Source: Octopus vulgaris
Taxonomy: Eukaryota
Assembly (NCBI GenBank): GCA_951406725.2
Contig: OX597816.1
Location: 5,084,001-5,148,000, forward strand
Length of the DNA stretch: 64,000 nucleotides
Reading direction: 5' to 3'
This document shows positions 8,270 through 62,589 of this stretch, one piece after another. A program made the position numbers and the translations under genes. Below the pieces are notes generated by a model that worked only from the letters and a program-made list of their open reading frames with translations, searched no databases and was not told the DNA's origin. Within the stretch, counting starts at the first letter, position 1, and the number at the start of each line of letters is the position of its first letter.

Positions 8270-8298
8270 CTGAAAATGAAAAACCTAGATAACGGATA

Positions 8299-8371
8299 AT
8301 GCAGTACCGGTTTCGGATTTTTCAAAATACGCTTGCCAAACGTATACTTGATTTATCCTCATCAGCTGCAT
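8299..8371 (-). ncRNA. Type I hammerhead ribozyme motif (minimal palindromic stem III)
   Basis: AUGCAG-CUGAUGA-GGAU(extended hairpin)AUCC-GAAA-CCGG-UA^CUGCAU: 6-bp stem I, intact core, GUA cleavage triplet. Confidence 0.85.
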
Positions 8372-8519
8372 AAACCTCAACAATATTTCAAAAGTTGCCA
8401 CATCTATGCCAGTACACTCGTCTGAACGCCACAACGTTAACAGAACGAGAACAGTGAAGAAGTTTCAATGAAAATAGCAATGCAATAATGTATGTATTTA
8501 TGTATGTATATATACATAT

Positions 8520-9100: not shown

Positions 9101-9222
9101 CTTCTATATTTAAGAGATGAGGAATTATGTACGTTATTTACATTTGACGATATTTGCCCTCATCTTGTTTGTTGTTAACACAACGTTTCGGCTGATATAT
9201 ACTCCAGCCTTCATCAGGTATC
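9101..9222 (-). ncRNA. Penelope-LTR-like repeat carrying a minimal hammerhead (9177-9222)
   Basis: GAUAC-CUGAUGA-A-GGCUG..CAGCC-GAAA-CG-UU^GUGUU; homologous to 59148-59255. Confidence 0.78.
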
Positions 9223-9764
9223 AGATGGAAACTGATGGCAGCTACTCGGCGTAAACTGCTATCTCCCAGCCATAATCTAGTTGAAATTTGTTTTCTATTC
9301 CCTAAAATACTTTTATCTTTGGATGGATATACTCTGCTTAATTTTCCTTTTATACCAACAGTCAAATTTAGCCCGAACACCCTGCAACAAAGACGCACCA
9401 CGTTCACTCCCACTTCAACGCCTCAAATCCAGTCAACCTCTACCTTCTTCTATTACAACACTTCTCTCTGTACTTTTCAGAGAAGATCCCAAATTTCGTA
9501 TAAATATACACTAAAATTTTCAAAATATTTATTTAGTCTGACGAATCGCAACATTACACTACCAGTCACAATTCCTATAGACCTTTCCATTTCCGGAAAT
9601 ATATAAATATATACATTATACACCAGACTAAACAAATATACTCCAATCTATATTTATTAGGAAAGCGATCTCTAAACGTAATATTTAATAGTACATTAAT
9701 CCATAAGGAGCTAGCGTTTGTTTGGGATTGAGGAGCCGAAGCATGATGGACTGAATGATGGATA

Positions 9765-9821
<57 letters not shown>

Positions 9822-9894
9822 CACACACATATACTTTATACTAAGTTTATAACATGCATATACAGAGACATCAGTAGACAGATATATATATATT

Positions 9895-10273
9895 GTGGCA
9901 CTCCGTCGTTTACGACGACGAGGATTCCAGTTGATCCGATCAACGGAACAGCCGGCTCATGAAATTAACGTGCAAGTGGCTGAGCACTCCACAGACACGT
10001 GTACCCTTAACGTAGTTCTTGGGGAGATTCAGCGTGACACAGAGTGTGAGAAAGGCGGCCCTTTTGAAATACAGGTACAACAGAAACTGGAAGAAAGTGT
10101 GAAAAAAAGTTGTGGTGAAAGAGTACAGCAGGGTTCGCCACCACCCCTGCTGGAGCCTCGTGGAGCTTTGGGATTTTCGCTCAATAAACACTCACAACAC
10201 CCTGTCTGGGAATCGAAAGCGCGATCCTACGATCATGACTCCACTTCCCTAACCACTGGGCCATTGCGACTCC
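9895..10273 (-). mobile_element. SINE-C (tRNA-derived)
   Basis: Colinear with 42841-43227 and 61068-61453. Confidence 0.9.
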
Positions 10274-11396
10274 AGACGTAGATATAGATATACATACATA
10301 TACACATATCTGGTATATACTCAAGTATGCAATATATATTTATTAGCTATGAATATATCAAAAAAGCTATGAATATATGCAAACACGCACGCACGCACAC
10401 ATACATATGCATCTATATATATATGTATACCTATATATCTATATATGCATTATATACTTGTTACAGCATGTTTGTAAAATAGGTTCTCTATTCTAATCTC
10501 TCATGATTATTACTTAAATCCATTTAAATACATTTTTAAAATATATCTGTTTGAAATAAAATCACTGATATCAGAGCGGAAGATAAAACATTTACAGAAA
10601 AATCTCTGCTCTGAAGCGCATGGTTGTTATGTTGCTTCCATTTGAACGCAACACTTCAAAGAGCAGACGTTGTATCCTATGATCAAAAGAAATATGTTTT
10701 ATCTAATGTTTTTTATAAAATTATGTGGATATAATCTTATATTTTAGTTATGCAATATATACTGGTCAAAATTTATTTCTAACACTTTATCTGAACGTAA
10801 AAATCTCTGTTAACAGATCGGCAGCTTTGGTTAGACTAAGCTTCGCTGATGGAATCTAACAGAACGAAATCTCACTATAGCTTTACAGATCCCATTTTCT
10901 TTCTTCAAAACATGTAAATTTGAAGTGTGAATTTCTTGTAATTTTCTCCCTTTTTCTTTGTGCGTTGCTAACAATTACCGCTGGGTATTTGTTGTCTTTC
11001 TCGAACTAAGAACTAAATTTCAAATCATAAAATATTTGCATACGATATGCAGCTCATGACAACCTATCGCATTCATTCAAACTCATACTGTTGGTCGATT
11101 TGAGTTATTACCCCTTAGTTCATTTTAAATGAGAACCTAAAAAAGAATTGTGGGAGACTCTTCTTCAAACTAGCATGTTCCTATGTCATCATTGATTAAA
11201 CAAACGAATGACCTATCTAGCCTTGACCACCTCATCGTCTTTTATAAAGAACGTGAATCTAAGATAATCTTATCCAATGTGTCCTTCTTTTGGGCACAAT
11301 AGATTGTGATTTGAGGGAGAGGAGTTCGACTGCTATTTCTGACAAATTAAGCAACTTAATCCACTGGTCCGTCTGTGTGTGTGAGGAAGAGAAAGG

Positions 11397-42840: not shown

Positions 42841-43227
42841 TGGATGGAAGCACTCCATCGGTTACGACGACGAGGGTTCCGGTTGATCCGAATCAACGGA
42901 ACAGCCTGCTCATGAAATTAACGTGTAAGTGGCTGAGCACTCCACAGACACGTGCACCCTTAATGTAGTTCTCGGGGATATTCAGCGTGACACAGAGAGT
43001 GACAAGGCCGGCCCTTTGAAATACAGGTACAACAGAAACAGGAAGAAAGAGTGAGAGAAAGTTGTGGTGAAATAGTACAGCAGGGTTCGCCACCACTCCC
43101 TGCCGGAGTCTCGTGGAGCTTTAGGTGTTTTCGCGCAATAAACACTCACAACACCCGGTCTGGGAATCGAAACCGCGATCCTACGACCGCGAGTCCGCTG
43201 CCCTAACCACTGGGCCATTGCGCCTCC
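42841..43227 (-). mobile_element. SINE-C, full length with TSD
   Basis: A box TGGCCCAGTGG, B-box-like GTTTCGATTCC; TSD aattcatgag at 42831-42840 and 43228-43237. Confidence 0.95.
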
Positions 43228-47584: not shown

Positions 47585-47775
47585 AGGGGAGAGTTTACGA
47601 AAAAATACAAAAAACGAAGACAGGTGGTGTACAAAACAAACAGATGTATTAGTATAACGCTCAGGAATAGAAAAAGTCTTTTACGTTTCGAGCCTACGCT
47701 CTTCTTCAGAAAGGGACACAGAAAAAAACAAGGAGAGAAAAAAATGTGTGTAGCGGCAAACGATCTATATATGAC
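47585..47775 (-). ncRNA. Penelope-LTR-like repeat with an intact minimal hammerhead (47678-47713)
   Basis: CUUU-CUGAAGA-A-GAGC(GUAG)GCUC-GAAA-CG-UA^AAAG. Confidence 0.8.
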
Positions 47776-57899: not shown

Positions 57900-58646
57900 G
57901 TCATGTATTGCGACAGCACGTCGCTGCATCCACCATTTGGTGGTAATTCCCTACTTCCGGTGAATGATACCTTTGCACCACTCAGGCAACAACCCTCCAA
58001 CCGGTGGGTCTGTTTGGGGAGTCAAGGCTGGCGAGGATTTTAAGAAGTTGGAGTGCAGATCCTACCTCAAGCTTGGTGAGTCATGGCTGGCGAGGATTTT
58101 AAGAGGCTGGGCGGACGGCAGATCCTACCTCAAGCTCTTTTAATCGTCTTTTATGATGCAGAGAGGAAGTGTTGGGTCTCTTCTTTAACGTACCAGACCC
58201 ACACAGCATTAGAGCAACATGTAAAGACGGATTTGCTTGGTGAGTCATGGCTGGCGAGGATTTTAAGAGGTTCAGGGGTAGATCCTAACTCAAGCTCATT
58301 TAGTCGTCTTTTATGACACACAGAGGAAATGTTGGATCTATTCTTAAACGTGCCAGACCCACACAGCATTAGAGCAACATGTAAAGACGGATTTGCTTGG
58401 TGAGTCATGGCTGGCGAGGATTTTAAGAGGTTCAGGGGTAGATCCTAACTCAAGCTCATTTAGTCGTCTTTTATGACACACAGAGGAAATGTTGGATCTA
58501 TTCTTTGACGTGCCAAAACCACACAGTATTAGAGCAACATGTAAAGAAGGGTTTGTCTCGAGAAAGCAACATGTTGCTCAATCCAGGAATTGAACCCATG
58601 ATCTGGTGGTCATGAGTGCAACATCCTAACCGCTAGGCGATGTGCT
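57900..58646 (-). mobile_element. tRNA-headed SINE-like element with an internal ~160-bp segment tripled
   Basis: Minus-strand head cgcctagcggttagg..gggttcaattcc at 58646-58580; units start at ~58071, ~58235 and ~58394. Confidence 0.7.
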
Positions 58647-58779
58647 GAAACCAATGAAGTCGTTTTATTGACCTTGGGGTGATGTAACGCAACATCTGAC
58701 CTAAAGGGTTCTGCTTCTCTGAAGACAGTTGTTCGTTTGGAAAGATAAATGTTGTTGGAGATAATAATAGTTTCTTTGC

Positions 58780-58897
58780 AGAAATCAGTTAATATTTAGT
58801 GTTTAAACTGGTTGCATCCAGAGCATATGGCGTAGTGGTTAAGAGCTACTAACCCCAAGATTCCGAGTTCGATTCAAGGCCGTGACCTGAATAATAA

Positions 58898-58955
<58 letters not shown>

Positions 58956-59255
58956 CATCATTATCATTCATGTCACGAACTTGAATCGAACTCGGAATCT
59001 TGGGGTTAGTAGCTCTTAACCACTACACCATATGCCCTGAATACAACCAGGTTAAACACTAAATGCTTGCTAATTTCTATAATAATAATAATAATAACAT
59101 CGAAAAATATCTTAGGAATGAGAACCCAAGTTCGAAATTTCCCCCAAGACACCTGATGAAGGCTGGAGGGTATATCAGCCGAAACGTTGTGTTAACAACA
59201 AAAAAGATGTTTGTTGTTAACATATATCCATCAAATGTAAATAATGTAAATAATG
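58780..59255 (+). mobile_element. tRNA-headed, hammerhead-tailed element with inverted duplication of head plus flank
   Basis: A box TGGCGTAGTGG, B box GTTCGATTC; arms 58780-58891 and 58967-59078 are reverse complements; hammerhead at 59148-59193. Confidence 0.75.
59148..59193 (+). ncRNA. Minimal type I hammerhead ribozyme motif
   Basis: GACAC-CUGAUGA-A-GGCUG..CAGCC-GAAA-CG-UU^GUGUU. Confidence 0.8.
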
Positions 59256-60825
59256 TTCTACCTGTTGTATGTTCAAATTGTCCTGATCTGACTTCTCACA
59301 CTGTTATAATGTGGATCCTCATCTGCTTGTATATTATTGTCGCCACTATTACGTTGTAGCGGTATTGCTCATCTTGTTATCTTTGACTCGTCTATCGTGC
59401 TATTGCTGACAGTTCCGCAAGATAATAACTTTGAAACATCTACCTTGATGGTAACTTAAACGCGTATATATCACACATAAATGGCACTGACTCCAACTGA
59501 GAAATTCATACAACGATTCTACTACTATTGTCCTCCCACAACGACTGAATGTCTAGCTTTGTAGTGAATAAGTCATACCATTTTTGCCACGTGGGAAGGG
59601 GTGTACCATTTCACTACGACACACACCTACCCTACAATGTCATCATCATCATAATCTATCATCCGTTTTCCATGCTGGCATGGATTAGACATTTTGATAG
59701 GAGCAGTTGTCTGTTTTGGCATGGTTGGATACCCTTCCTAATACCAAATTGTACTGAGTACTTTTTACATGGCACCATCCCCATGGCACCAGCACATTTA
59801 GTAAAACTAATTCCATTCATTATTGAGGTGCCGGGGTGGAATAATACCAAGGATTAAACTCAGTTCTATGTTTCACTTTGTCTCAAATGAAAGTTCTTGA
59901 ACCAAATGTTAGGTCTTTTCTCAAATGAAAGGTCTTGAACTAAATGTGGAATCTTGTCTCAAATGTTAAGAATCAATATGGGATCATTTCTAAAAGGATT
60001 GAAGAATATTTTGGTTAGAGTTCAACCAAATGTGTTCAGTGTTTACAACCAATGATCCTCTACATTCTGAACTGAAATGTCTTTAAGGACTGATATTGTC
60101 TCCAATCTTTCCAGAATTAATAAAATAAATAGATTTGTCAATATACTCAGATCGATTTAATCAGCTGAGTGCCCCGTTTCCAAGGAAACAAATCAATATT
60201 TCTGATTCAATGAAACAACTTAGTATTTCGCCTCAAAATTGTTTTTAACTTTCCTTATTTCACTTTTATACGTTTTATTATCAAATGTTGAATATGATCT
60301 AACTTCTGTAAATGGTGATCAATTACTAGAATCATTCGCATACCAGATAAAATGTTTGGTGGCATTTCATCTGCCTGTACATTCCAAGTTCAAGTTCCGC
60401 CAAGGTCAGCTTTGCCTCGATAAAATACAAATCCCTTCATCAGATTTGATCCTCTTCTCCAAAAGTACTGACCCTGTACCAAAATGTAAAACCAATTTCT
60501 GTAATGTGGCACCAAACATAATCCAACTGTTTTGATTTCAATTGCTTCTTAGTGACGTTATTGGCATTTATTAAAGTTAGAATCAGTAAGACTCTGAAAC
60601 TTGGTTCCTTCATAACACTTTGGGTCCTTCAGAAAATTACTCACACATCAGGAGGGGATCCAAGATTTTTTGTTTTGAGTGTTGCCCAAAAGTTTCAAAA
60701 AAATTCTATACAATGTGGGAATCACAATTCATAACAAATGGAACCATTTTAATATATTCTAGCTTTGTTGTAGCAGACCATATGCATAGGAAAGAGTATT
60801 TCTGTGAAACTGCTGGAAATAATAT

Positions 60826-61067
60826 TTCGTTTTTGGATTTGGTTTGCAGGATTCTTTATATGAGTTCGTGTGTTGAAGCATATTCTGTTTTGTCTTGGGG
60901 GAGTAATTTTCTTCTGGTGCCTTATAATGTAACACGCTCACCGGTAAAATTTCCACTTTTTTTGTTATTTCTATTTTCCTAAAAGTCAAGACTCAACGAA
61001 TATTTTAGGAAAATAAAATAAGAAAAAAAGTGGAAATTTTACCGGTGAGTGTGTTACGTTATAAGGC
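60826..61067. repeat. Family D as an inverted pair (foldback); right arm interrupted by SINE-C
   Basis: 60919-60984 is the reverse complement of 61002-61067; arm resumes at 61454 (..aaggcacaacagaatat). Confidence 0.85.
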
Positions 61068-61453
61068 GGAGGCGCAATGGCCCAGTGGTTAGGGCAGCGG
61101 ACTCGCGGTCGTAGGATCGCGGTTTCGATTCCCAGACCGGGCGTTGTGAGTGTTTATTGAGCGAAGACACCTAAAAGCTCCCCGAGTCTCCGGCAAGGAT
61201 GGTGGTGATCCCTGCTGTACTCTTTCACCACAACTTTCTCTCACTCTTACTTCCTGTTTCTGTTGTGCCTGTATTTCAAAGAGCCGGCCTTGTCACTCTC
61301 TGTGTCACGCTGAATCTCCCCGAGAACTACGTTAAGGGTACACGTGTCTGTGGAGCGCTCAGCCACTTACACGTTAATTTCACAAGCTGGCTGTTCCGTT
61401 GATCGGATCAACCGGAACCCTCGTCGTCGTAATCGACGGAGTGCTTCCATCCA
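61068..61453 (+). mobile_element. SINE-C, full length with TSD
   Basis: TSD tacgtt(a/t)taaggc at 61055-61067 and 61454-61466; tail ttccatcca. Confidence 0.95.
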
Positions 61454-62589
61454 TACGTTTTAAGGCACAACAGAATATTCTGGAACTAAAATAACAATGT
61501 TATTATATTTACAACAGTGCAGCAAAAATGGTTGTTGCTTGGGCAACTAGGACAACACTCTGCATCCACCACTGCACATCCCTTAAAATTGGATATAATG
61601 AATTCATTCTGAAGTTCTTTATTTAAAGCAAAAGTTTTAAACTTTTCCACAACTAAGGACCACTTTTATTTATAAGGACCCCAGATTTTTTGAAAACTCT
61701 ATTTGGTAAGTTCATGTTTTTAAGTAACAACTAATTCGTTTTCCAAGTTTTATCTCTCAACTAAAAGAACTGAAGAATTATATATAACAAGGTGTATTTT
61801 ATGCTGCAGTTCTTTGAAATTTCAAACACAGCTCACAGACCCCCAGGTGTTTGTAGGTTCCGGAGTAGGAACTGATGATCTGGAACAAGAGAGCTAAGCA
61901 AAGTTCAGCTGCTTATAGCATGTGTTCTGCACCAGGTCAAGCCACCTATTTATAACTAGAGGTCACTTTGAGAATCAAATGTACAGAGATTCTCTTCAGA
62001 CTACACAGCTGCAACGCTAACATATAAATTACTGAACTGACCAGATACAGCGCTTTCACAAGAAAACTAGTCATGTACTTAATTAAATGAAATGATTGCT
62101 ACAAGATTTTTTTTTCCATTTCCTATTTCGAATTAAACATGACAGAATGACAAGTTATGAATAGAATCTGATACAACAGGAAAAACAGACATTGTAAATT
62201 ATTTAAGATATTGTTTTCATTACTGGAGAGGAAACTGGTTTCTCCATTGATAGGATAAAAAAGAAAGAGAGTACAGAAATAAATTTATATGATGTTTCTG
62301 CTCACTGGTAAGGCATTCCGTTCATGATATAATACGTTGCTGGAATATCCAATTAACACAGAGTTCACAGTGTAATACCATTCCTTCTTAGAGATTCAAA
62401 TTACTTTTCTGATAATTTATTGCCATTTTGTTATCAACTTAATTTTAATTCCCTTTTATAGGATGACATAGTGACATTTTGATGGAAAAGATGGCCACTA
62501 ATCTTTACGTTTAATATGATACCAACATATCTGTGATGTTTGTGTCCATCTGTCTACAAACGGACCTCTGTATGTGACTGTGTATGTAT

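Follow-up and report, generated by a model that had tools for sequence, protein, structure and literature searches.

The repeat at positions 58780-59256 of the window, i.e., of the whole 64-kb stretch of Octopus vulgaris DNA that was analysed, is a dead, decayed, and folded-back pLTR-only copy of a very common Penelope/Poseidon-type retrotransposon rather than a separate SINE. Its succession of tRNA-like head, (TAA)n linker and tail represents, almost certainly, the pLTR of an autonomous element of this type. The first-pass annotation had interpreted the same succession as a SINE/retrozyme hybrid with a SINE head grafted on a borrowed tail, an interpretation that had to be given up because the whole unit including the head is the pLTR of the coding element. 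With somewhat better than even confidence we favor a combined reading of the locus as a dead pLTR-only copy, whose head likely represents a Pol III promoter and whose foldback likely goes back to a local template-switch accident. The promoter boxes, linkers, inverted head and flank, tail, and hammerhead that had been described before were all found where they had been placed. The locus and a second copy of the pLTR in the window comprise the following features, of which the boxes and microsatellites were read from the sequence:

58780-58820, plus strand: host flank, single-copy and captured in the inverted duplication (a genome search with 58740-58822 matched only its own locus)
58821-58890, plus strand: tRNA-like head, forming the 5' portion of the Penelope pLTR (head position 1 is the first position of this copy)
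58828-58838, plus strand: A box of the first head
58867-58875, plus strand: B box of the first head
58891-58967, no strand assigned: (TAA)3-C-(TTA)n, the family's microsatellite linker and axis of the foldback
58968-59037, minus strand: inverted copy of the head (a 6-nt deletion and two substitutions are common to both heads)
59038-59078, minus strand: host flank repeated in inverted orientation (identical to 58780-58820 at 33 of 41 positions)
59079-59096, plus strand: (TAA)6, the point of return to the element
59097-59256, plus strand: tail, the 3' part of the pLTR and 5' end of the Penelope ORF (ATG at 59118)
59148-59193, plus strand: minimal type I hammerhead motif without loop III (predicted cut after 59188)
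59210-59222, minus strand: private 13-nt inversion of 59190-59202, competing with hammerhead stem I
9101-9222, minus strand: second, 5'-truncated copy of the same pLTR, from the hammerhead to the long 3' end and without head (by alignment)

The ORF frame of the locus copy is broken after eight codons from the ATG at 59118, the tail falls into the short 3' end class that lacks the 30-40 nt extension, and no target-site duplication is visible at 58780-59256. The length of the linker between head and tail varies widely among the copies of the family. The anticodon arm, which had been described as shortened, carries a 6-nt deletion in the locus copy; this does not apply to the family consensus, as an undeleted 37-mer of the head has 462 exact copies in the genome. 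Likewise, the tail that had been reported to occur alone at 9101-9222 does belong to the same pLTR, but comprises only the tail part from the hammerhead on (107 aligned nt, 82% identity). This copy sits inside an older repeat. The DNA upstream of 9222 was considered as a Penelope partner and rejected, since it is the end of an old and abundant DNA-transposon-like repeat (9223-9385, minus strand; approximately 80% identity, 1171 candidates) that received the pLTR copy and that may, judging from its terminus and ORF motifs, be a Tc1/mariner element. Several other repeats were observed. Directly upstream of the locus, three tandem 160-nt units (58117-58596) lead into a tRNA-headed SINE-like repeat (approximately 58545-58640, minus strand) that has decayed. 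A long AT-rich hairpin formed by an inverted repeat, perhaps a MITE, adjoins a SINE copy at 60921-61065, and identical microsatellite-bearing stretches at 622-739 and 2505-2615, about 1.9 kb apart, suggest a recent local duplication. About 8 kb downstream of the locus, and thus beyond the window, lies a back-to-back copy of the same pLTR (L282 3241-3532, G000:C3).

The pile-up of copies revealed a single open frame of 838 amino acids within a unit of 2,667 nt, with a spacer of 150 nt from the stop codon to the next ATG. Within the unit, the ORF end is followed after 29 nt by the head, then by the (TAA)n and by the ORF start with the hammerhead. The frame contains an RT domain (RVT_1, E = 5.5e-10), and the protein shares 40% identity over the RT and 29% over the C-terminal GIY-YIG region with a PLE protein of Anolis, which is assumed to be PAc-like. 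Domain order and the 40% identity to the Anolis protein suggest that the element is of the Penelope/Poseidon type. A C-terminal protein fragment had no relevant Pfam match, and ORFs of other Penelope families were not found in the fetched loci. At the family level the element displays the features of EN+ PLEs: a single ORF with RT and C-terminal GIY-YIG endonuclease, a pLTR-ORF-pLTR layout with the ORF start inside the pLTR (seen in L216 and the N-terminal loci), a minimal type I hammerhead motif in the pLTR, an optional 3' extension of 30-40 nt, and inverted 5'-truncated copies. L216, which was reached by walking upstream of a head, is a near full-length pLTR-ORF-pLTR copy and thus an instance of the autonomous PLE with the same pLTR for which the first-pass annotation had proposed to search. 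Continuity of ORF, head, and tail was observed in most of 29 + 29 ORF-selected loci, and three clusters of a random sample run 5' of the head into shared sequence that is the ORF end. The ORF frame reads through the hammerhead, and the encoded peptide is kept in a 53%-identical relative.

Head and tail are also joined genome-wide. When 30 head loci were taken in genome order and scored for tail distance and 5' start, a tail was located downstream within 700 nt in 26, further away in one, and not at all in three. The two circumstances named beforehand as speaking against the earlier proposal, adjacency at this locus only and a tail derived from the 3' UTR of a LINE, were looked at and do not apply; the tail is that of a Penelope element, and mobilization by a Penelope RT, which had been proposed, is well supported. 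A SINE family is non-autonomous and stands apart from its coding partner, and since the coding element itself contains this head, the unit does not qualify as one. The 3' features of tRNA-derived SINEs are absent too, as the 3' end is the Penelope ORF start and the (TAA)n is internal. The short form thus works like a SINE, yet fails SINE membership.

In 80 evenly spaced 10-kb stretches (800 kb) 10 clusters of the family were found, which extrapolates with a wide error to approximately 35,000 in the 2.8-Gb genome. Exact 20-mers had 9103 genomic matches for the tail and 5148 for the head, compared to 1013 for a 20-mer located 19-38 nt before the head and 879 for one about 190 nt before it (ORF, 160 nt further up). 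After calibration by the exact-match rates of the copy sets, these counts correspond to approximately 21,400 tails, 13,800 heads, 2,100 ORF ends, and 1,900 copies further up in the ORF. Hence, 13% of the copies are lost over 160 nt of ORF versus approximately 85% over the 65 nt across the head edge, and the copy number falls about 6-fold exactly at the 5' edge of the head. The starts of individual copies show the same cliff, with 24 of the 30 heads starting at positions -8 to +5, for which 1-5% would be expected from background truncation, and the remaining six at -14 to -211. DNA contigs from four organism labels likewise contained joints at this edge. Of five head clusters in the random 800 kb, however, only two start there. 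The 3' ends are bimodal, with 90 of 155 at tail positions 138-159, 56 at 182-196, and nine elsewhere; these two classes match the two internal RT start sites of PAc of Anolis (PMC11167929, in the parts consulted).

It is also conceivable that the short copies constitute a genuine SINE lineage, non-autonomous but with source genes of its own, that is transcribed by Pol III and depends on the Penelope protein for mobilization in trans. Short, pLTR-only copies outnumber ORF-bearing ones by about 6:1, and they contain the two promoter boxes as well as the RT start region, but no internal T4. Furthermore, Schistosoma has SINE-like elements that are tRNA-derived and bear a hammerhead (PMC2770079, PMC6765202), and animal retrozymes are described as deriving from pLTRs (bioRxiv 10.64898/2026.07.22.740005), as far as the accessible portions of these sources go. 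However, the fit to a single consensus is as good for short copies as for ORF-bearing ones, with 0.905-0.92 identity to the pile-up consensus in every set (about 91%), which indicates an old burst. The sole variant that was checked, the 6-nt head deletion, occurs in both kinds of copies: it was found in six other fetched loci, three of which are joined to the ORF, and therefore marks no short-only lineage. An unsystematic look at the fetched loci revealed no short-only subfamily either. A separate SINE lineage is thus considered improbable, and internal priming by the element's own RT, which sheds SINE-like copies, is the best reading of the copy ends.

As regards the polymerase, other SINE-like repeats in the genome have heads with 62-73% similarity to the Penelope head in the same register, and the latter may resemble a threonine tRNA. 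One of these repeats is an abundant tRNA-headed SINE-like family present in the window at 9890-10280, 43163-43218, and 61077-61460, for which the in-register alignment of the heads gives 62-66%. The Penelope head no longer folds as a tRNA. The Rfam tRNA model matched the undeleted head weakly and below threshold (10.8 bits, E = 9, model positions 8-63), Rfam made no tRNA or hammerhead call on the locus or on L146, and ARAGORN detected no tRNA in the 64-kb window or in the fetched loci. The 5' cliff of the copies lies 14-16 nt before the intact A box, the distance at which the start of a tRNA gene is expected. The head likely marks the transcription start, and from its boxes and the position of the cliff we infer that the polymerase is likely Pol III; that the head itself acts as the Pol III promoter appears moderately probable. 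A more far-reaching version, to which we give somewhat less than even credence, is that a coding Penelope element captured a tRNA-type internal promoter and that its 2.7-kb unit, which lacks a T4 terminator, would be transcribed by Pol III end to end, the same RNA giving rise, through internal priming by the Penelope RT, to the coding copies and to some 10,000 SINE-like ones. There are indeed no T4 runs in the 2,667-nt sense strand, compared to 2.9 expected by synonymous permutation (P = 0.022) and 4.7 by two other null models (P approximately 0.005). G4 runs are likewise absent from the unit (3.2 expected), and 16 other transposon ORFs contain 23 T4 runs versus 34 expected, with none in four of the 16; the avoidance of T4 is therefore suggestive only. 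The control LINE pile-ups were too shallow for this test. The abundant tRNA-headed SINE of the window is also free of T4 over 410 nt.

Alternatively, the tRNA-like segment might be a passenger, i.e., an old tRNA or SINE fragment, in an element transcribed by Pol II from a TATA-like motif or as read-through multimers, with the cliff representing a Pol II start or the point of self-priming at a TGCCC/GGGCA palindrome. A TATA-like motif covers the stop codon about 30 nt before the cliff and would suit either polymerase. For Adineta Penelope elements, the consulted parts of the description report pLTRs that lack a tRNA head and nevertheless begin at a defined 5' end, with palindromes and TATA/Inr-like motifs (PMC3846280). 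Since headless pLTRs thus also have defined palindromic 5' ends, the cliff marks a start or a foldback point, not a polymerase. The passenger hypothesis gains further from an exact foldback junction at -7 in at least five of the 30 heads, and from the five near full-length loci that reach the head edge, of which one stops there and four continue into an upstream ORF end; such run-on copies fit tandem formation by template jumps and, equally, longer transcripts. It is also in line with the weak T4 controls and with three RNA-seq runs from a species carrying the family (mRNA libraries of unknown strandedness, which would miss short Pol III RNA) that contained no Pol III-type transcript: the strands were equally represented, no start or end peak was seen, and the depth over the ORF was below 1% of that over the tail, a pattern as expected from copies riding in host transcripts. 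On the other hand, the cliff coincides with the start expected for a tRNA gene, as judged from the intact A and B boxes, several copies without a foldback are joined to host DNA at -8 to +3, the palindrome offers a stem of only 4-5 bp, and the whole unit is free of T4. A passenger head is thus regarded as unlikely, although it is a more serious contender than a separate SINE lineage.

With the head as probable promoter, a copying cycle can be proposed from the observed order of the unit and the observed end points of the copies. The RNA would start approximately 6-8 nt upstream of the head and 14-16 nt upstream of the A box, resembling that of a tRNA gene with a short leader. By analogy to PAc of the anole, the RT might prime inside the RNA at an AC-rich stretch that follows the hammerhead. 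If it primes at the 5' pLTR, a head-(TAA)n-tail copy of 250-300 nt would result, and if it primes at the 3' pLTR, copies that bear the ORF. A cDNA ending at -7 could fold back on the TGCCC/GGGCA palindrome, which would account for the common back-to-back pairs. At the locus under study, the head would have been joined to host DNA before the growing strand turned in the (TAA)n, copied the head and 41 nt of host DNA backwards, and returned to the (TAA)n; this template switch probably took place during insertion or shortly afterwards.

The arms of the foldback at the locus differ at 13 of 113 positions (11.5%), and the structure folds with z = -21.5 relative to 100 shuffled sequences; it is thus neither due to chance nor a read-foldback artefact, and is an old genomic structure. 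It is not part of the architecture of the family, but a rare structure: the foldback containing host DNA is private to the locus. The usual inversion in the family is back-to-back at the 5' ends and was found in 93 of 152 clusters (57 were single and two complex; the window's own loci were left out of this count), consistent with the standard Penelope layout (PMC8557442, in the part consulted). The locus shows the reverse arrangement, in which the copies meet head to head across the (TAA)n and 41 nt of single-copy host DNA are included. Of 144 loci, only two have host DNA in inverted form next to the element, the one at 58780-59256 and L262. In the latter (L262 917-1819), which is larger, both outer 3' ends of the inverted structure are flanked by 52 nt of non-element DNA in inverted orientation. 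Four contig sets gave no coverage of the inverted host flank of 58780-59256, an outcome without weight in either direction. The 6-nt deletion and two substitutions are common to both arms at 58780-59256; hence, the head was already joined to the host when one arm served as template for the other. A template switch that turned and returned within the microsatellite likely explains this. The timing is loose: the tail is approximately 3-5% from the consensus and the arms are 11.5% apart. As the tail is no more diverged from the consensus than the arms are from each other, the foldback may date from the insertion itself, during second-strand synthesis; a later replication switch is possible. The private 13-nt inversion at 59210-59222 is a second, small template switch.

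The hammerhead core of the locus is intact, with CUGAUGA at 59153-59159, GAAA-CG-UU at 59181-59188, and stem I formed by 59148-59152 and 59189-59193. It is of the minimal type without loop III and has a GUU triplet, and a 50-nt piece folds with stems I and II (z = -2.3). The private inversion pairs, in the predicted fold, with the 3' strand of stem I. This motif raises the question whether the family is a ribozyme-processed retrozyme that spreads via cleaved monomers or circles. The core is conserved, headless tandem (TAA)n-tail arrays with one hammerhead per unit exist (L015/L016, G000:C2:2733900-2735900, and L028), and 10 of 245 tail matches begin at tail positions 90-95, beside the cut after position 91, versus about three per 5 nt elsewhere. 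However, three of these 10 starts are internal rearrangements, a palindrome is located at the same place, and most copies span the cut site. No peak of RNA ends was seen at the cut in the three mRNA-seq runs. According to the parts consulted of the respective studies, single minimal motifs of Penelope pLTRs, which lack loop III, did not cleave (Cervera and de la Pena; PMC4209133), and cleavage is not needed for the insertion of PAc (PMC11167929). Tandem hammerhead units, as expected of retrozymes, are not typical of the family either; most clusters are single or inverted, and the tandem arrangement occurs at two places, both headless. These arrays are retrozyme-like satellites of the pLTR, whose units are joined at the point where the end of the tail is similar to that of the head. 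Spread as a retrozyme is thus very improbable, the earlier suggestion of processing by the ribozyme is unsupported, with 5' ends at the cleavage site weakly enriched, and the hammerhead is probably not needed for the copying or the foldback proposed here. Other hammerhead-like motifs were encountered as well: one with a long stem II at 8284-8380 (minus strand; Rfam HH9, 22.8 bits, E 0.36), which probably belongs to another Penelope family, a third minimal one at 47686-47709 (minus strand), and further distinct ones, some in inverted pairs, in L085, L087, L095, L101, L107, L121, L122, L133, and L157. Several Penelope-like families seem to coexist.

Comparison with known systems is based on the portions of the cited sources that were available. 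The octopus element resembles PAc/Poseidon of Anolis (PMC11167929) and Pen2/Pen2a of Adineta (PMC3846280) in its single ORF of approximately 840 amino acids with RT and C-terminal GIY-YIG domain, in a pLTR of approximately 200-300 nt that contains the ORF start, a minimal hammerhead, and an optional 3' extension of 30-40 nt, and in 5' truncation and inverted pLTRs with palindromic junctions. It differs in that its pLTR opens with a tRNA-like segment containing A and B boxes, followed by (TAA)n, a head of which these portions make no mention; the about 6-fold excess of pLTR-only over ORF copies sets it further apart. The combination of a tRNA head and a hammerhead is already known from Sm-alpha: like the octopus unit, Sm-alpha and Sj-alpha of Schistosoma unite a tRNA-derived Pol III promoter sequence and a hammerhead in one short, very abundant repeat (PMC2770079, PMC6765202). 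Sm-alpha has a canonical, active hammerhead and no coding parent in these descriptions, whereas the octopus unit has a minimal hammerhead and is the pLTR of a coding element. Non-LTR retrozymes of animals share with it the derivation of non-coding repeats from pLTRs, type I hammerheads, and the proposed use of PLE machinery, but form tandem arrays that give rise to circular RNA, while the octopus copies are mostly dispersed as single units or inverted pairs and have a tRNA-like head (PMC7761336; bioRxiv 10.64898/2026.07.22.740005). Fusions of small RNA-derived sequences to autonomous retroelements are also known from tRNA-headed SINEs with LINE 5' and 3' parts (Bov-tA, SINE2-1_ACar; PMC5786205) and from LINEs with small-RNA 5' ends (crocodilian Tx1 with U1/U2 ends; PMC4758252). 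These cases concern LINEs, and the SINE head is absent from the coding partner; the octopus head, in contrast, lies inside an autonomous Penelope element. No description of a tRNA-headed pLTR was found in the consulted literature on Penelope elements, SINEs, retrozymes, and cephalopod repeats, and Repbase/Dfam, the 1994 octopus SINE paper, or supplements such as the repeat library of PMC13282606 may contain the family.

The foldback of the locus, as an individual accident, matters little. The family as a whole offers a sharp and countable handle on two points of the Penelope cycle, the start site of the RNA and the reason for inverted pLTRs. In practical terms, tens of thousands of repeats in the genome would be mislabelled as SINEs. 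If the proposed reading is true, a tRNA promoter drives a coding retrotransposon, whose protein would have to be translated from an uncapped Pol III RNA. SINE-like repeats would then arise from Penelope itself, without a LINE partner, which would represent a route to the birth of SINEs inside an autonomous element.
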